Positions 5,209-37,462 of a stretch of 41,088 bases of DNA are shown one piece after another. Within the stretch, counting starts at the first letter, position 1, and each line of letters starts with the position of its first letter. The notes below the pieces were generated by a model. That model ran no database searches and was not told where the DNA came from. It worked only from the letters and a program-made list of their open reading frames with translations. The DNA comes from a virus (taxonomy: Duplodnaviria > Heunggongvirae > Uroviricota > Caudoviricetes). The stretch spans positions 1 through 41,088 of IMG/VR virus record IMGVR_UViG_2579778622_000013, one strand, 5' to 3'. The position numbers and the translations under genes were made by a program.

Positions 5209-5289
5209 AACTTGTTACCTCGGTCTGTTACCGTTGAGGTAATAATTATGCGTATCTGGTTTGATGTCAATAGATATGAGTTAAAAAAA

Positions 5290-5361: not shown

Positions 5362-5946
5362 TTATTGTTTGTTTTTTTCGTTCTGGTTGATGACAAATTC
5401 AATGTAACTTTCGATCTTTGCTTTCTCGGTTTCGGGTAACAATGCGTAGCGCGAGCGGTCATAGTTGATAGTCGCAGGGTCGTGCGGGTGAATCAGTAAT
5501 TCATAGCCATGACGCCCGAATGCGGATGCAACATTCTCCAGGGTGGAAATGGAAACGCTGACCTCATTGTTTAACAGGCGGCTGATTGTCACCTGGGCGA
5601 CGCCGGATGCGCGGTGAAGTTTTCCCTGCGTTGAAAGGTCGCGGCTTTCGCTCATCCAGCGTTCCAGGTTGTGAGCCGCCAGCTGACCAATGTCGCTTGG
5701 GCCGACAGGCTGAAAACCTTCCTGAGAAAGCGAGCGATCGATATCAAGCCAGTTACGGGGTTTATTGGCGGCAGCTTCAATTTTTCGTGCAACCTGGTCG
5801 CCGATAACCTTCTTGCCAAGAGCCCAGCGGTTTACCAGATTTGCCTGAGTTCCAAGTTTTTCTGCCATCCGCGTCTGAACACCATTGAATTCACGGTCGA
5901 TCAAGTCGTTGAGATTTTGCCTGCGGACGTCCTGGATACTTTTCAT
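5362..5946 (-). CDS. Prophage repressor (CI-like), tandem HTH, no LexA-type S24 autocleavage domain
   Basis: 194 aa; divergent from cro-like gene with three operators between; HTH-like segments near residues 25-60 and 110-150; no Ala-Gly / GDSM / Lys motifs. Confidence 0.65.
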   Translation of the reverse strand: MKSIQDVRRQNLNDLIDREFNGVQTRMAEKLGTQANLVNRWALGKKVIGDQVARKIEAAANKPRNWLDIDRSLSQEGFQPVGPSDIGQLAAHNLERWMSESRDLSTQGKLHRASGVAQVTISRLLNNEVSVSISTLENVASAFGRHGYELLIHPHDPATINYDRSRYALLPETEKAKIESYIEFVINQNEKNKQ

Positions 5947-6100: not shown

Positions 6101-6331
6101 ATGAGCGATAACGGACATTTCGATTTCAAAAAGCACTGGCTTGCACTTACTCCGGATGAGCGTGAAGCCTTCGCACAGGAAGCCGGAACGACGAGTCACT
6201 ATATCCAGACTCACTTAACAGGTAAGCGCAAAATGCCAGGTAAAGTATTGATGAATGGGCTTTTTAAAGCCTGTAAAACAAGACAATGGCTGCGCTCAAA
6301 AGCAGAACTGGCATACTTCTTCTACTCATGA
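6101..6331 (+). CDS. Cro/CII-like HTH regulator
   Basis: 76 aa, divergent from repressor; HTH-like EREAFAQEAGTTSHYIQTHLTGKR. Confidence 0.55.
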   Translation: MSDNGHFDFKKHWLALTPDEREAFAQEAGTTSHYIQTHLTGKRKMPGKVLMNGLFKACKTRQWLRSKAELAYFFYS

Positions 6332-6401: not shown

Positions 6402-6481
6402 TAAATAACCAAATCTGGTTGATATTTTTTTTGTGTCAGCACAAAATAACCGTAATCCCAATACTAATAGCAGGGCTTACC

Positions 6482-6682
6482 ATGGAAATCATTACACGTA
6501 TTGATGCCGCAAAGCGCGGACTTAAACGCTACTACACCGGAAAAACATGTAAGCACGGACATGACAGTGAACGCTGGGTTTACAACGGACACTGTGTTGA
6601 GTGCACCATGGAATCAAACCGTCGTATCAGGGCAGAGATTAAGCAGATCATGATTAATTCCTCCCCACAACATTCAAGCTGA
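6482..6682 (+). CDS. Small Cys/His zinc-finger-like protein
   Basis: 66 aa from ATG 6482; motif C-KHGH...C-VEC; ORF-track start at 6419 judged less likely. Confidence 0.4.
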   Translation: MEIITRIDAAKRGLKRYYTGKTCKHGHDSERWVYNGHCVECTMESNRRIRAEIKQIMINSSPQHSS

Positions 6683-14968: not shown

Positions 14969-15045
14969 TGGCGTGGCATGCAGGATTCGAACCTGCGACC
15001 AACCGCTTAGAAGTCGGTTGCTCTGTCCAACTGAGCTAATGCCAC
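14969..15045 (-). tRNA. tRNA-Arg (anticodon UCU), phage-encoded argU-like
   Basis: 77 nt with CCA; cloverleaf GTGGCAT/ATGCCAC acceptor stem, D-arm GCTC..GAGC, anticodon loop CTTCTAA, T-arm GCAGG TTCGAAT CCTGC; similar but not identical to E. coli argU as recalled. Confidence 0.85.
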
Positions 15046-32055: not shown

Positions 32056-32688
32056 TTAATGCAGTTTATCTTTGCTTATAACCAGTAGTCTGTGGGTATG
32101 CACATCTTTATCACTGCCCCAACAGAAATCAGCCCACTGGCTATAGAAATCATCCCATGATGCCATGAAGCTAAGAGGTCTATCTTCTTCAGAGCCATCT
32201 GAAACGTATACATTATATCCTGGGGTGTTTATAGCCCAAGAAATCATTCTTTCCCAGAATCTTCTCCCATCGATTGTTTGTTGCTCATCAGATACAACGA
32301 TCGCATATTGCTCTAGGAAGAACTGAAAAAAAATCTGAGGCAAACCATGAACAGCACGGTCATGAATAACATTAGGCGTACGCCATACCATGATCTGCGT
32401 ACATGTTCTTTTGGCTTCGACGATATCTTCCCGAAAGATTAACTTAACCGCATACACCGTTTCTGGAGTATCGCTGGTAGTAATCATTCTGTAATGATCG
32501 CCATTACAAGATTTTACAAGGCGATAACCATAAGGTGTTGTGAATCCCGGAAGAACGAAATCAACCACACCTTTCGCTAAGTAGCTTTCGGTGTGACTAG
32601 TGTTCTTCTCAGACATGTTCAGTTTTCTATCGAAATCTGCTTCTGGGATAATGTATGGCATCGCTTTTCTTGTTGTATTTGTTCTCAT
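32056..32688 (-). CDS. Hypothetical cytoplasmic moron protein (210 aa)
   Basis: Strong GGGAGGA RBS; AT-rich; no recognisable motif; own operator-containing upstream region. Confidence 0.6.
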   Translation of the reverse strand: MRTNTTRKAMPYIIPEADFDRKLNMSEKNTSHTESYLAKGVVDFVLPGFTTPYGYRLVKSCNGDHYRMITTSDTPETVYAVKLIFREDIVEAKRTCTQIMVWRTPNVIHDRAVHGLPQIFFQFFLEQYAIVVSDEQQTIDGRRFWERMISWAINTPGYNVYVSDGSEEDRPLSFMASWDDFYSQWADFCWGSDKDVHTHRLLVISKDKLH

Positions 32689-32834: not shown

Positions 32835-33545
32835 TCAGAAGAACCCTGCCTTGTCGTTGATGTACTCCGCGTGCGTCTGGATATCACGCAGGCATTTGCT
32901 CACACCGACGATGTAGCAGAACATGGTGGTCAGCTCCGCCGCCGCGCCCGATACGTCGTGCCCGTCGTCCTGTAACTGGTTCAGCAGATTCATCAGCAGT
33001 GAGTTCTCCGTCAGGCCGAGAACACCAGACGGCGAGTGAATCAGGCTGCGGTAGCCGGGCTTCAGCGGGGCGCTGTAGGTTTTGTTCTCTATCTTCATTG
33101 CCTGCATCACTGCTGACGCCGTGGCGTTGGCTACCTGGTCGGCAACCATCTTTATGCGTTCTTCCTGCGGGAGCGAGTTTTTAATGTAACTTCCGGTGCG
33201 GCGGATCTGAGGAAGAACCTCACCTGTAACCCATTTACGAAAGCGGTAGGGGATAGTGCCTGGTGTCACTGCGTCGCGGCAGCGGAGGATCAGTGTGTAG
33301 AGGCCTGACTCGGAGATGATGTTGATCTCTTTTACTCGGCTGTCAAAAATTGCACGATGTTCATGCCCTATGTTGAACATAGACCTTTCATCATCATCCA
33401 GTTTTTCAAGTGCTTGGGTGACGTTTTGGATACGCAGCGCACTACAAACGTCTTGGGCTACAAACCATGGTTGGCCATCGATAATGATGGAACGGATAGG
33501 GTTAACAGATTCAAATTTGAAGATGGCAGTTTGAGCATTAGCCAT
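32835..33545 (-). CDS. Antirepressor, Bro-N/AntA-type N-terminal domain
   Basis: N-terminus MANAQTAIFKFE..IRSIIIDGQPWFVAQDVCSALRI typical of Bro-N/AntA; ATG 33545 with GGAGA RBS. Confidence 0.75.
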   Translation of the reverse strand: MANAQTAIFKFESVNPIRSIIIDGQPWFVAQDVCSALRIQNVTQALEKLDDDERSMFNIGHEHRAIFDSRVKEINIISESGLYTLILRCRDAVTPGTIPYRFRKWVTGEVLPQIRRTGSYIKNSLPQEERIKMVADQVANATASAVMQAMKIENKTYSAPLKPGYRSLIHSPSGVLGLTENSLLMNLLNQLQDDGHDVSGAAAELTTMFCYIVGVSKCLRDIQTHAEYINDKAGFF

Positions 33546-33942
33546 GGTGGTTATCTCCACTTAGTGATTTTAATCACCACCGCAACGCCAATTACTGGTG
33601 GTGAACTGGACAAGGTTGGCGTACCGGCCTAAGTGGTACCGGCGTCCTTTCGGACCCCTGCCCAGCCCACCATAATTCGGATATAGCTGTGCTTAACGCA
33701 TAAAAAAACCACGTCTGGCGTGGTATGCGCCACTTAGTAACTCGGGACGCCAATCCCGGCACTGGATTTTGCCAGTACCCGATTACTATGGCACAAGAGG
33801 AGTGCGATGTAAATTTACCGCAAAGGTAATGATAAACGCGTAGAAATATCAAAATCAACCGTATTTGGTTGATTGCGTTTAACGCTTGATCACCTGAAAG
33901 CAAGATATTACCTTTAAGGTAATGTTATTGTGAGGAAAAGCA
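33546..33942. promoter_or_regulatory. Divergent control region and long antirepressor leader
   Basis: Dyads at 33815-33829 and 33908-33922; minus-strand intrinsic terminator 33702-33724; palindrome GTGATTTTAATCAC at 33564-33577; three mutually complementary 9-mers. Confidence 0.45.
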
Positions 33943-34671
33943 ATGGAAGTTTTCTGGATAGTTGTTGGTGTGGTTGCGGTGATTATTTACGTTATCAACC
34001 AGAACAAGACTAAGATCTCTGATCGTACGGTCGTTAATCATAACAAAACGATAAAGACCGAAGATGGGGAGATAACGATTAATCGTACACAGGTGATAGA
34101 ACACACCTCTACTCAGTTTCAAAAAACTGGAGGTAATGCGCCTAATATTTCCGCACCTCCTGCTTATGATAGTGCGGTAATCCAGACATATTATAAACAG
34201 CAGGAGTTAGCAAAAGAGAGGCAACTGATTCAGCCAAAGCCATTTACAGCAGAGCTTCCACCTGGAGTGTCAACGCGTCCGGCATATCATGGAAGATTCC
34301 CTGGTGATGACACATCGTCTCAGTCACCTAAAAAAGCACCTCAGGCAGTATCAGAGCCAGCAAGAATACCTTCTGTATCGCCGCCAAAAGAAGAATCAGC
34401 TAACAGAGTTTCAAGTGGTAGCAAGCAGTGCTTGCGATGCAGAATAAATCTTCCATATGAAAAATTCAGGAAATCGTCAAAAAATCCAGATGGATTGACT
34501 AAGTGGTGTGCAAGGTGTCTCGATGGCCCAAAGAATACACGCCATATGAAGTGGTGCCCAATTTGTAATGTCCGCAGAAAACGAACAAGCTTTTACCCTA
34601 ATAATCAAAATGCGGACGGCTTAATGGCATGGTGCAAAACGTGCTGGGATGAGCACAAAGCGAAACGATAG
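33943..34671 (+). CDS. Membrane-anchored protein with tandem CxxC zinc-ribbon repeats
   Basis: N-terminal TM helix VFWIVVGVVAVIIYVI; two repeats C-x2-C..DGL..WC-x2-C at the C-terminus. Confidence 0.6.
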   Translation: MEVFWIVVGVVAVIIYVINQNKTKISDRTVVNHNKTIKTEDGEITINRTQVIEHTSTQFQKTGGNAPNISAPPAYDSAVIQTYYKQQELAKERQLIQPKPFTAELPPGVSTRPAYHGRFPGDDTSSQSPKKAPQAVSEPARIPSVSPPKEESANRVSSGSKQCLRCRINLPYEKFRKSSKNPDGLTKWCARCLDGPKNTRHMKWCPICNVRRKRTSFYPNNQNADGLMAWCKTCWDEHKAKR

Positions 34672-34694
34672 GCCGCTCTTGCGGCCTTTAAATT
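34671..34694 (+). terminator. Rho-independent terminator
   Basis: GGCCGC-TCTT-GCGGCC then TTTAAATTT. Confidence 0.55.
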
Positions 34695-34951
34695 TACCGG
34701 GTTTGTTTTCGTAATTGTTCGGCACAATAGTCGAGATGTGTTTGCAGATCCCGCATAGACATCTGTGAGCTGGTGACGTAGTTAATCAGTGCAGTCAGTT
34801 CGGCAAGTGGGCCATCGACATTAAATCCATCCTTATCGAGATCCCGGAGTAATTTCATCAAGTGCGATCCCTCCACCAGTGACCTGACGCCTCCCGGCGT
34901 GTGAATCCTTTCGGTAAATCCGTCTTCCAGTGGATAGTGATACCGCTGCAT
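34694..34951 (-). CDS. Small protein homologous to the antirepressor C-terminal domain; LexA-boxed (candidate SOS antirepressor)
   Basis: 85 aa from ATG 34951 with GGAGA RBS; TPGGVRSLVEGSHLMKLLRDLDKDGFNVDGPLAELT..MRDLQTHLDY parallels the Ant C-terminus SPSGVLGLTENSLLMNLLNQLQDDGHDVSGAAAELT..LRDIQTHAEY. Confidence 0.6.
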   Translation of the reverse strand: MQRYHYPLEDGFTERIHTPGGVRSLVEGSHLMKLLRDLDKDGFNVDGPLAELTALINYVTSSQMSMRDLQTHLDYCAEQLRKQTR

Positions 34952-34972
34952 CTTATCTTCTCCATGCAATAA

Positions 34973-35146: not shown

Positions 35147-37462
35147 ATGACGGTCTCAACCGAAGTTAACCACAACGAATACACAGGTAACGGCGTTACG
35201 ACATCGTTTCCGTATACTTTTCGAATTTTCAGAAAATCAGACCTGGTTGTTCAGGTGTCTGACCTGAACGGGAACGTAACAGAATTGGTTCTGGATACCG
35301 GTTATACGGTAACTGGGGCGGGCACTTATAGTGGCGGTTCAGTGGTTCTGCCGTCTCCGCTTGCTGCTGGCTGGCGAATTACGATAGATCGTGTGCTTGA
35401 TGTAGTGCAGGAGACAGATCTTCGCAATCAGGGAAAATTTTTCCCCGAAGTGCATGAAGATGCTTTTGACTACCTGACGATGCTGATCCAGCAATGTTTT
35501 GGGTGGTTCAGACGTGCATTGATGAAACCATCTTTGCTTGCAAAATATTACGATGCAAAGCAAAACAAAATTTCTAACCTTGCAGATCCATCACTTGAGC
35601 AGGACGCTGTAAATAATCGCTCAATGCGTAATTATGTCGATGCTGCAATCGCCGGGGTTGTTGGTGGTTTTGGTTGGTTTATTCAGTATGGTTCTGGAGC
35701 AGTATACCGAACGTTCCAGGATAAGATGAGAGACACCGTTAGTGTTCGCGATTTTGGGGCAAAAGGCGATGGTATAACAGATGATACATCTGCATTGATC
35801 CTGGCTGCAGAATATGCACGAGAATCATCCAGAACATTACGAGCGGAAGGTAATTTTATTATTACGGAGACATTAAATCTTCGTAATGTCAGCCTCGAAA
35901 TGACCAATGCTGTTTTTACCATATCCCACTCAGGAATAGGGGTATTGCTTGGCGGGAATGCATCAAACCCTAACAACCCAAGACAAAACTTCGGAACGAT
36001 TATCAGAAATTCTGGTATTTCATCTGAAACGACACCGGATATTCGTATTATCGGGGCAAAAGGGCAGCATATAAACATTGAGCGTTGCGACTACTTACAG
36101 TTATATGCAAATTATAATGCTTCGGTGGCATCGACGGATTATTCAATAGCATACTCAACCTTTAACCTGAAAAAGGTCGATACAATTCATTTTCTTGGAG
36201 TTGAGAAAGGATGGATAAATGAAAACTATTTTTATCTGAATCGTACGAATAATATCATTTTCGCTGATAATCCATATCATCATAACCACAATAAGTTTTA
36301 TGGTGGAACTATGGAGGGGGCAGGTAAAATTGATATTCAAAGAGGTGATAACAATTACTTCTACGGGTTTCGTTTTGAACGAGATCCATCATCCCAAACT
36401 AACCAACAGTTGATAATTAACTTTGGTGAATATACGTGGAATAACTCAATTGAAGCTACATGGTTAAGTTCTCCTTACTATACAAATGAGCCATACAATC
36501 CATCACCTTACACTTATGTCGAGGTAACTGATAATGGCAAGGGGAATGCAGTATTTCATATTCAGGAAAATATATCCGATGAAGTAACATTGTTTTCTTT
36601 AAATGCTAACACCCCATTTATATCCAGTGCTAACAATGGAGAAGTTGGTGTATTAGCATTTCAAACAGATGTAGATGGTTTATATAATATCCGTCACCTG
36701 GTTTCTTCTAAGTTTGCTTTTATGCGGAATTTTGGGTTGTTATGGGAATCTGGAGATGTACCAGTAAGAAATGGTGATATGTTTACATTCTCAGCAGATA
36801 CGGCATCGTTTCGCATTTACCTGTATGCATTAGATGGAGATGGGAATGTCATAACTTCACAAACAGAAGCAATAACTTCTTCTATGCAATGGGATTCATC
36901 TAACCATAGATATGCTACTGTTGCTAACATTTCTTCCATTAAGATCAGGATTAATAATGAAGGGGTTCCAGTTAGTGCAATTCGTTTAGCTGTGTATTCT
37001 GGTGGTAATGTAGCGAATACTGCATTTTCATGGCTATGCTTAACTGGTAGATATTACAAAAATAGCACATCCTTGCCAAGGAAAAGCAAAGATAACTTCA
37101 CCTTAAAACAAGGAAAAGCAATTACTTATTATAGTGATACTGATATTAGTATGGCTAACATTGGTTCAGGAATTACCTGTTATAAAACCGATTTATCTGA
37201 ACTCAAAATTAATCTTGTAAGGGGCAGGTATTTAGTGAAATCAATTTCAGGCAGTGAAATATATGTATACCAAGGAACAGTCACTTATTACCCTCCATTC
37301 AGTGATGTCAAATTGGTATATACGGATGGGGTTGAAAATAAATTATTAGATGTGCAAAACATCTCTTCAGAAAAGATTACTCTTGCAGATACAGTACCAT
37401 CAGCTATATCTGCAGGTGATTTTGTAGATATTATTGTTACAAAGACGAAATCTATTTTATGA
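35147..37462 (+). CDS. Tailspike with N-terminal particle-binding domain and pectate-lyase-like beta-helix (polysaccharide depolymerase)
   Basis: 771 aa; N-terminal segment ..RNQGKFFPEVHEDAFDYLT..; VSVRDFGAKGDGITDDTSAL pectate-lyase-superfamily hallmark; AT-rich C-terminal two-thirds. Confidence 0.85.
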   Translation: MTVSTEVNHNEYTGNGVTTSFPYTFRIFRKSDLVVQVSDLNGNVTELVLDTGYTVTGAGTYSGGSVVLPSPLAAGWRITIDRVLDVVQETDLRNQGKFFPEVHEDAFDYLTMLIQQCFGWFRRALMKPSLLAKYYDAKQNKISNLADPSLEQDAVNNRSMRNYVDAAIAGVVGGFGWFIQYGSGAVYRTFQDKMRDTVSVRDFGAKGDGITDDTSALILAAEYARESSRTLRAEGNFIITETLNLRNVSLEMTNAVFTISHSGIGVLLGGNASNPNNPRQNFGTIIRNSGISSETTPDIRIIGAKGQHINIERCDYLQLYANYNASVASTDYSIAYSTFNLKKVDTIHFLGVEKGWINENYFYLNRTNNIIFADNPYHHNHNKFYGGTMEGAGKIDIQRGDNNYFYGFRFERDPSSQTNQQLIINFGEYTWNNSIEATWLSSPYYTNEPYNPSPYTYVEVTDNGKGNAVFHIQENISDEVTLFSLNANTPFISSANNGEVGVLAFQTDVDGLYNIRHLVSSKFAFMRNFGLLWESGDVPVRNGDMFTFSADTASFRIYLYALDGDGNVITSQTEAITSSMQWDSSNHRYATVANISSIKIRINNEGVPVSAIRLAVYSGGNVANTAFSWLCLTGRYYKNSTSLPRKSKDNFTLKQGKAITYYSDTDISMANIGSGITCYKTDLSELKINLVRGRYLVKSISGSEIYVYQGTVTYYPPFSDVKLVYTDGVENKLLDVQNISSEKITLADTVPSAISAGDFVDIIVTKTKSIL

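Follow-up and report, generated by a model that had tools for sequence, protein, structure and literature searches.

The exclusion proteins RexA and RexB of lambda, SieA of P22 and Imm of T4 are largely membrane-embedded. In P22, sieA sits between the genes for the injection proteins and the gene for the tailspike. The phi29 protein p16.7 serves that phage's own protein-primed replication and, to our knowledge, has no link to immunity loci. It is an early protein of this Bacillus phage, consists of an N-terminal transmembrane (TM) anchor and a cytoplasmic DNA-binding domain, and recruits phi29 DNA to the membrane (PMC4974454). Tandem zinc ribbons of the Stc1 type (PF12898), which have two C-x2-C...C-x2-C units and an F...DG...WC signature, are present in HNH and endonuclease VII proteins of phages and giant viruses. 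The gene described here appears to join ribbons of this type to a membrane anchor. It lies in the IMG/VR virus record IMGVR_UViG_2579778622_000013, of which positions 1 to 41,088, the whole stretch of 41,088 nucleotides that was analysed, are referred to as the window. It encodes a product of 242 amino acids, termed here the ribbon protein. The reading favoured, tentatively, is that the ribbon protein would bind nucleic acid while tethered to the membrane and facing the cytoplasm, and would serve in exclusion or defence.

The ribbon protein shares its two ribbon units and their signature with the Stc1-type proteins. Unlike the Stc1-ribbon nucleases, it lacks any enzymatic domain, be it a nuclease, a helicase or another, and unlike other Stc1-ribbon proteins it is membrane-anchored through a TM helix at its N-terminus together with a conserved hairpin. 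This architecture was not found in the literature searched (Stc1 in phage; TL-2011b/phiV10 superinfection), nor was any paper on the protein itself. It resembles RexA/RexB, SieA and Imm in being a dispensable accessory membrane protein of temperate phages that is encoded at immunity regions. As with rexAB, the gene can be found directly downstream of a repressor gene, in seven of 31 clusters of homologues, and as with sieA it lies between injection-protein genes and a tailspike gene. It differs from these proteins in its sequence, which resembles that of no annotated exclusion or defence family (PHROG, PADLOC), in being bitopic with a large cytoplasmic zinc domain and in being predicted to be repressed in this lysogen, and its exclusion activity is hypothetical. 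An N-terminal TM anchor and a cytoplasmic domain would be shared with p16.7; for the ribbon protein the anchor and the C-in topology are predicted, and DNA binding is suggested by charge and domain family. It is unrelated to p16.7 in sequence and fold and, unlike p16.7, is the product of an accessory gene linked to immunity loci. Escherichia coli ZipA offers an analogy of architecture only. It too is oriented N-out/C-in, has a charged region next to the membrane and a long, flexible tether rich in P and Q, and ends in a globular binding domain. There is no homology between the two, and the C-terminal domain of ZipA binds the FtsZ tail without zinc.

The first-pass annotation had drawn a parallel with the positions of immI and sieA in P22. 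The position agrees and the kind of phage does not. The prophage in the window is of the epsilon15/phiV10-like kind (Uetakevirus) and is not P22-like, and the parallel is therefore a positional analogy only. The closest phage record is TL-2011b, with 95% nucleotide identity.

Architecture and relatives of the ribbon protein

The anatomy first proposed for the 242-residue product, an N-terminal TM helix, a linker and two tandem Cys4 repeats, was confirmed by the sequence and by an AlphaFold2 model (Table 1). The only cysteines of the protein are residues 163, 166, 189, 192, 205, 208, 231 and 234, which form two C-x2-C-x22-C-x2-C units with the sequences given in the first-pass annotation. These units align without gaps with a BLOSUM62 score of 69, compared to 22.8 +/- 5.0 for shuffled sequences. 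None of 2000 shuffles reached 69, so the repeat is a true internal duplication. The full-length model was built on a 28-sequence alignment. Residues 160-242 were modelled confidently, with a predicted local distance difference test score (pLDDT) above 90, and when residues 157-242 were modelled alone the mean pLDDT was 88.6 and the predicted template modelling score (pTM) was 0.67. Confidence was low over nearly all of residues 49-155, and residues 56-155 are read as disordered. The two strands of the juxtamembrane module, residues 26-39 and 42-55, were also of low confidence.

Conservation was examined in 28 homologues of 38-96% identity from about 10 genera. These include Escherichia, Superficieibacter, Enterobacter, Citrobacter, Salmonella, Serratia, Providencia, Pectobacterium and Buttiauxella, and the whole plan is kept. 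The cysteine pattern, whose conservation the first-pass annotation had marked for checking, holds. The cysteines of ribbon 1 are invariant in all 28 homologues and those of ribbon 2 in all 27 full-length ones; the sole exception is a 173-residue sequence that ends inside ribbon 2. Between the TM helix and the first cysteine, with the hairpin module counted in, family members have from 51 to 144 residues. The juxtamembrane module is kept even in distant members. Its conservation, together with that of the helix, makes it probable that this part has a role in oligomerisation or in contacting a partner in the membrane, which is more than a plain anchor would do. A profile search for other C-terminal partners of the TM/hairpin region returned only truncated fragments of the same family and was uninformative.

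At least 71 proteins with the same architecture were identified among the matches examined, all of them named 'hypothetical'. They are found in Gamma- and Betaproteobacteria and range from Enterobacterales to Aeromonas, Acinetobacter, Oceanobacter and Kingella. In these 71 proteins the TM helix starts at about residue 3, and the N-terminal flank has a median length of 2 residues and a mean charge of -0.9. The 20 residues past the helix have a mean charge of +2.6, and in 64 of the 71 proteins charge is more positive on the C-terminal side. By the positive-inside rule, these flank charges point to an N-out/C-in topology. The ribbon protein is strongly predicted to be a bitopic inner-membrane protein of which only Met-Glu is periplasmic and the rest is cytoplasmic. 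This orientation suits Cys4 zinc sites because such sites need a reducing compartment. The ribbon domain is compact and very basic, and its net charge is +14, which is also the mean of the 71 members (range +7 to +19).

The ribbons match the Pfam Stc1 family (PF12898) with 20.4 bits (E=7.6e-4), which is under the gathering cut-off of 24.8 bits. Sub-threshold matches at E<=0.1 were obtained for 24 of the 28 family members, the best at E=1.2e-4, and several relatives score above the cut-off (among them P0034, 33.9 bits; P0069, 39.2 bits; P0083, 31.1 bits). The Stc1 arrangement, eight cysteines as two consecutive Cys4 units, is present. An exhaustive search with a hidden Markov model of the ribbon domain returned 2968 cluster representatives at E<=1e-3. 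About 40% of the best 150 representatives share the membrane-anchored plan, and other relatives among these 150 are soluble proteins made only of 3-12 tandem ribbons. Relatives also carry the ribbons fused to helicases (SF1/SF2; ResIII/DEAD, AAA_11/12), to Bro-N and T5orf172 domains, to a DnaJ J-domain (one case) and to HEAT repeats. In P0121 and P0130 the ribbons are N-terminal to a separate HNH domain, and in P0168 and P0172 to an Endonuclease_7 domain. The ribbon family thus seems large and largely undescribed in prokaryotes and viruses, and Pfam Stc1 captures only part of it.

Structure searches of viral models with Foldseek gave HNH, endonuclease VII and 'Stc1 domain' proteins at E values of about 1e-6, and HNH-type enzymes were the best structural matches of the Cys4 module. 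Against the PDB, Foldseek with the full-length model gave nothing significant (best E=1.2), as the disordered two-thirds swamp the small domain, and phmmer with the C-terminal domain gave only a chance match to a RING finger among PDB sequences (E=0.62). The 'endonuclease VII' and HNH profiles of PHROG that match the protein are covered only in their N-terminal parts, for example at positions 8-52 of 142. A further PHROG profile, 'Lar-like restriction alleviation protein', matches at E=2.6e-9; its name is the annotation of a family and carries no tested function. No Pfam HNH or Endonuclease_7 match was obtained at E<=1. Neither ribbon has an invariant histidine in the 28 homologues; the conserved turns are D183-G184 and D225-G226, and the sole near-invariant histidine, H201, sits between the ribbons. 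The ribbons are strongly predicted, on these sequence features, to be an Stc1-like accessory module without an attached nuclease domain.

In a phage HNH nickase, deletion of an N-terminal zinc-ribbon domain, which may be of another ribbon family, weakened the activity and relaxed site recognition (PMC3592412). This precedent, the net charge and the fusion partners favour nucleic-acid binding, which is the most likely activity of the ribbons.

Promoter, operators and genomic settings

The gene is real and not a chance open reading frame (ORF), since it matches PHROG 6762 over its full length (E=2.3e-149, residues 1-242 aligned to profile positions 1-242 of 242) and since full-length copies are present in E. 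coli genomes. PHROG 6762 is annotated as function unknown. One coordinate had to be revised. The end of the gene, 34671, stands. The start given at first, 33908, is the first base of an operator-like dyad in its 15-bp form, and the coding sequence begins at 33943. The dyad itself was correctly recognized and proved to be a perfect 17-bp palindrome, which ends 19 nt ahead of the ATG codon.

A putative sigma-70 promoter can be read from a -35 element TTGATC (33886-33891), a 17-nt spacer and a -10 element TACCTT (33909-33914), and the -10 element is the left half of the operator. The pair is weak and fell below the threshold of the promoter scan. It is the only plausible promoter, and the locus has no same-strand upstream gene that could supply transcripts. 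The same geometry of TTGAnn, 17 nt and half-operator is found for homologues in five further clusters, six in all. The -35 element is TTGACC in L079 and TTGATC in L085 (both IMG/VR prophages), TTGAAC in L004 (Serratia) and TTGAAT in L007 and L023 (Providencia). In Providencia the dyad is altered to TTAACC-N5-GGTTAA with the geometry still kept. With its weak promoter, operator, Shine-Dalgarno sequence, coding sequence and terminator, parts of which are strongly predicted, the gene forms a self-contained unit.

The operator belongs to a set that extends over the prophage. Within the window, TTACC-N5-GGTAA occurs 16 times with one mismatch allowed, compared to 0.70 expected, and none of 100 shuffles reached 16. 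The sites, 15 bp each, start at 5228, 5290, 6002, 6050, 6387, 8333, 8395, 11831, 11849, 14751, 15368, 32748, 33815, 33908, 35028 and 38127. Sites 6002 and 6050 lie between the repressor gene and the cro-like gene, and sites 5228 and 5290 are at a PL-like position. Nearly all of the remaining sites are intergenic; they are spread prophage-wide and often paired, 18-93 bp apart. From this arrangement, the dyads are read as the operators of the main repressor of the phage. The operator at the ribbon-protein gene is of the same family as those of the cI/cro region and overlaps the predicted promoter, as judged from the sequence and from the geometry in the six clusters.

Because the left half of the operator appears to serve as the -10 element and this geometry is kept in six clusters, repression of the gene in the lysogen can be inferred. 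The gene is probably off in a stable lysogen of this phage through direct action of the prophage repressor. It shares a two-operator control region with the divergent isrK-C4-ant operon and would be expressed alongside it on infection or induction. A role of the repressor as an activator was considered and rejected. With an activating site centred near -42, transcription would have to begin within the conserved part of the gene's coding sequence.

The gene is a dispensable cassette, since phiV10 lacks the segment 33820-34693 (compared with L002, 5218-5260). Full-length copies were found in 129 of 5426 complete E. coli genomes (2.4%), pathogen lineages included, and were always named 'hypothetical protein'. 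For a census of contexts, loci were taken from genomes and IMG/VR, grouping of the proteins at 80% identity gave 31 clusters, and the neighbours were classified. All identifiable contexts are temperate phages, prophages or small integrative islands. Thirteen of the 31 clusters are from epsilon15-like podoviruses and have the gene flanked by the injection-protein genes on one side and the tailspike gene on the other. In seven, with named members from Kingella and Aeromonas phiARM81mr, a same-strand gene for a CI-type repressor is directly upstream, and most of the gaps (15-63 bp) are too short for a terminator plus a promoter. In three more, the gene converges on a repressor gene with gaps of 0-38 bp. 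Genes of antirepressor type (Bro-N, KilA-N/ANT, pRha) are at most two genes away in five clusters. Other neighbours are hicAB, an RloB/AAA pair, a secreted SNase-like nuclease and the serine recombinases of a small island, and one member is in an early-right (nin-like) region. In Buttiauxella gaviniae (L009, 2119-9685), a homologue is carried among chromosomal genes on an element of about 7.5 kb, together with a CI/Cro-like pair and with genes for a small resolvase, a large serine recombinase and a YagK/YfjJ-like protein. This element may be a satellite or a degenerate prophage.

There are thus three expression settings for the gene, namely its own repressor-controlled unit, a cI operon and an early-right (nin-like) operon. 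In the lambdoid relatives that have it in the repressor operon, the protein is predicted to be made in lysogens, co-transcribed with the repressor.

Exclusion, defence and other candidate roles

The first-pass annotation had suggested either an exclusion protein or a membrane-tethered regulator. In the proposed mechanism, the ribbon protein would be a dispensable accessory factor in phage-versus-phage conflict, acting in superinfection exclusion or defence. It would act at the cytoplasmic face of the inner membrane, where an incoming genome emerges. There the tethered ribbons would capture the nucleic acid of that genome, or a protein associated with its DNA, so that the genome would not be released, circularised or expressed. 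In the settled lysogen, the prophage repressor would bind the 17-bp dyad and block the -10 element of the gene. Exclusion fits best because it would do the host no harm and would be of use in every phase, and such a function suits all three expression settings. The suggestion has indirect support from the cI-operon contexts (seven clusters behind a repressor gene and three convergent with one), and it gained none from homology to exclusion or defence families. A bolder form is rather doubtful. It would make this protein the first representative of a widespread and so far undescribed family in which one protein alone provides exclusion or defence, by means of homing-type ribbons that have lost their nuclease, are tethered to the membrane and intercept incoming genomes.

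Several points weigh against exclusion or defence. Every member of the family is named 'hypothetical protein' and the family is uncharacterised. The PADLOC defence models gave no match to the ribbon protein at E<=1, NCBIfam gave none that was significant or above its cut-off, and none of the 11 PHROG matches is an exclusion family. The operator geometry predicts repression in this lysogen, and the classical exclusion genes P22 sieA and lambda rexAB are expressed from the prophage. If the protein bound DNA at the membrane without specificity, the host chromosome would be bound as well, and some preference, for DNA ends, single-stranded DNA or a protein, must therefore be assumed. The ribbons can possibly bind protein instead, by analogy with the adaptor role of Stc1 and as the DnaJ and HEAT fusions may indicate; Schizosaccharomyces pombe Stc1 is a protein adaptor that binds Ago1. 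The promoter and the topology are themselves predictions.

It is also possible, but unlikely, that the protein serves host takeover or counter-defence, with the ribbons sequestering a host protein such as a nuclease or a component of the divisome or of replication at the membrane during early lytic growth. Its expression in this phage is of a repressor-controlled early type and co-regulated with ant. Ribbons of the Stc1 type can be protein adaptors, a DnaJ fusion (one case) and HEAT fusions occur among the relatives, the architecture recalls that of ZipA, and the Lar-like PHROG match would fit as well. However, that match is to a family annotation, and the fusion partners of the ribbons are mostly nucleic-acid enzymes. 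Placement in the repressor operon in seven clusters would imply continuous expression in the lysogen along with cI, which disfavours a host-toxic takeover protein.

A regulator of lysis and lysogeny, tethered to the membrane and binding the repressor, the antirepressor or their RNAs so as to tune establishment or induction, is a still less probable role. A repressor gene adjoins in 10 of the 31 clusters and antirepressor-type genes are near in five, the control region with its two operators is common to the gene and isrK-C4-ant, and one relative has the ribbons fused to Bro-N, which is the N-terminal domain of Ant-type proteins. However, the accompanying repressors (two helix-turn-helix (HTH) motifs without an S24 domain here, S24-type elsewhere) and antirepressors (Bro-N, KilA-N/ANT, pRha) are of unrelated types, which disfavours a single conserved partner. 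Providencia prophages carry the gene with no antirepressor in the region, one member is in the nin-like region and another in the small island, and accessory genes of all kinds tend to collect at immunity regions. The idea of a tethered regulator fits the range of contexts less well than exclusion does.

An abortive-infection protein with sensor and effector in one chain is improbable. In such a protein the ribbons would sense foreign DNA or protein, and the TM/hairpin module would oligomerise and damage the membrane. The N-terminal module is conserved beyond the needs of a plain anchor, seven clusters have the gene in a rexAB-like position, and defence effectors commonly combine one TM helix with a cytoplasmic sensor. 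However, a PADLOC match is absent, one TM helix with a two-residue periplasmic end would be a minimal pore former, and the hairpin is predicted at low confidence only.

It is very improbable that the protein organises the phage's own DNA at the membrane for replication, transcription or packaging in the manner of p16.7, which is also an early protein of similar design (PMC4974454). Early expression is predicted in this phage. However, the gene is dispensable and close relatives such as phiV10 lack it. In the 31-cluster census it is never in a replication module and often in a repressor operon, where the predicted continuous expression with cI disfavours a role in the phage's own replication, and the phages that carry it have unrelated replication systems. 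Least credible of all is an active membrane-bound nuclease with the ribbons as functional beta-beta-alpha-Me (HNH-type) fingers, as the best structural matches might suggest, and this candidate was rejected because the catalytic His/Asn pattern and any HNH or endonuclease VII Pfam match are absent, the conserved turn is D-G, and the ribbons of relatives sit beside a separate, complete nuclease domain.

The surrounding prophage and the wider meaning

The features of the gene and of the surrounding prophage are collected in Table 1.

Table 1. Coordinates of the ribbon-protein gene, its control elements and other features of the window.
Feature	Position	Strand	Remarks
Ribbon-protein coding sequence	33943-34671	+	242 aa, ATG start; PHROG 6762 member
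TM helix, residues 3-20	33949-34002	+	AlphaFold2 helix, pLDDT ~90; residues 3-19 hydrophobic
Juxtamembrane module, residues 21-55	34003-34107	+	NQNKTK..DRTVV....TIKTEDGEI.I.RTQV; predicted beta-hairpin
Tether, residues 56-156	34108-34410	+	Variable, P/Q/S/T/A-rich; 51% P+Q+S+T+A; mostly pLDDT<50
Zinc ribbon 1, residues 161-193	34423-34521	+	C163, C166, C189, C192; pLDDT >90; sub-threshold Pfam Stc1 match
Zinc ribbon 2, residues 203-236	34549-34650	+	C205, C208, C231, C234; PHROG 'endonuclease VII', HNH and Lar-like profiles match
Putative sigma-70 promoter	33886-33914	+	Read from sequence
Operator, perfect 17-bp palindrome ATTACCTTTAAGGTAAT	33907-33923		Ends 19 nt ahead of the ATG
Partner operator TTACCGCAAAGGTAA	33815-33829		93 bp centre-to-centre from the 33907-33923 dyad; beside isrK/ant promoters
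Shine-Dalgarno GAGGAA	33932-33937	+	5 nt ahead of the ATG; read from sequence
Intrinsic-terminator-like hairpin AGGCCGCTCTTGCGGCCT	34670-34687	+	Overlaps the stop codon; common to the convergent 91-aa gene
Presumed immunity repressor gene	5362-5946	-	194 aa; YdaS/Cro-like HTH at residues 21-61, HTH_3 at 106-147
cro-like gene	6101-6331	+	
Small ORF	6419-6682	+	cII-like position; operator 6387 ahead; Cys/His motif GKTCKHGH...NGHCVEC
tRNA gene	14972-15045	-	Rfam tRNA, 67.7 bits; operator 14751 nearby
210-aa ORF	32056-32688	-	Downstream of ant, operator 32748 between; full-length PHROG 1349 match (function unknown)
ant	32835-33560	-	Bro-N Pfam E=1e-19; PHROG 130 'anti-repressor Ant' E=1e-56
C4 antisense RNA	33594-33677	-	Rfam, 66 bits; in ant leader
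isrK Hfq-binding RNA	33702-33778	-	Rfam, 63.5 bits; in ant leader, in tandem with C4
103-aa ORF, rejected	33592-33903	-	Covered by the isrK and C4 RNA genes; probably spurious
91-aa gene	34694-34969	-	phiV10 gp24 homologue; PHROG 450
Tailspike gene	35147-37462	+	

To the left of the gene are the genes for injection-type proteins (to 31164), small ORFs, the 210-aa ORF, ant, C4, isrK and the control region. To the right are the hairpin terminator, the 91-aa gene and the tailspike gene. The gene is thus divergent from ant and upstream of the tailspike gene, as first described, with the 91-aa gene intervening. The layout of C4, isrK and ant is like that of P1 immI and of isrK in Gifsy-1, here in a podovirus. 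A predicted promoter, TTTACA/17/CATAGT, would start transcription at the 5' end of isrK.

On the left, the segment that phiV10 lacks is bounded within operator 33815; on the right, it is bounded by the stop codon of the 91-aa gene. An edge inside an operator suggests that operators can serve as recombination boundaries for the exchange of modules among Uetakeviruses. In TL-2011b the copy of the ribbon-protein gene is annotated only as a misc_feature, and the tblastn match begins at residue 19. It was considered as a pseudogene and this was rejected, because the TM region at its 5' end does not differ from that in the window; the short match is an effect of the low-complexity filter.

The phiV10 homologue of the 91-aa gene, gp24, is annotated as similar to epsilon15 gp19. 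The 91-aa product is the C-terminal domain of Ant in a separate, free-standing copy (43% identity over 74 aa to Ant residues 160-233, E=6e-16). The gene is kept in such phages even without ant, for example in Providencia, and its product could be a competitor or a partner of Ant. The 210-aa ORF had no match in Pfam, PADLOC or NCBIfam. The product of the small ORF in the cII-like position may be another small zinc-binding regulator, judging from its Cys/His motif. A tRNA gene is also present inside the prophage.

No S24 peptidase domain was found in the 194-aa repressor, so its inactivation must be by an antirepressor and not by RecA-mediated cleavage. With two HTH motifs, a single chain may be able to read one dyad. 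Some of the TTACC-N5-GGTAA sites precede late and structural transcription units. The dispersed sites resemble those of a single repressor with scattered operators, such as the P1 C1 operators and the 'stoperators' of mycobacteriophage L5. No paper describing dispersed operators in epsilon15-like phages was found in the literature searched. The repressor with dispersed operators is a second, separate regulatory question.

The ribbon-protein family is conserved and uncharacterised, and the joining of a known ribbon module to a membrane anchor is a combination that is undescribed in the literature searched. No function is known for most phage accessory genes close to immunity loci, and of the ones studied so far several have proved to be defence or counter-defence systems. 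If the ribbon protein does act in exclusion at the step of DNA entry, it would add a new class of mechanism. It would then also be relevant for phage therapy and for the typing of those strains of E. coli, Salmonella and Serratia in which such prophages reside.

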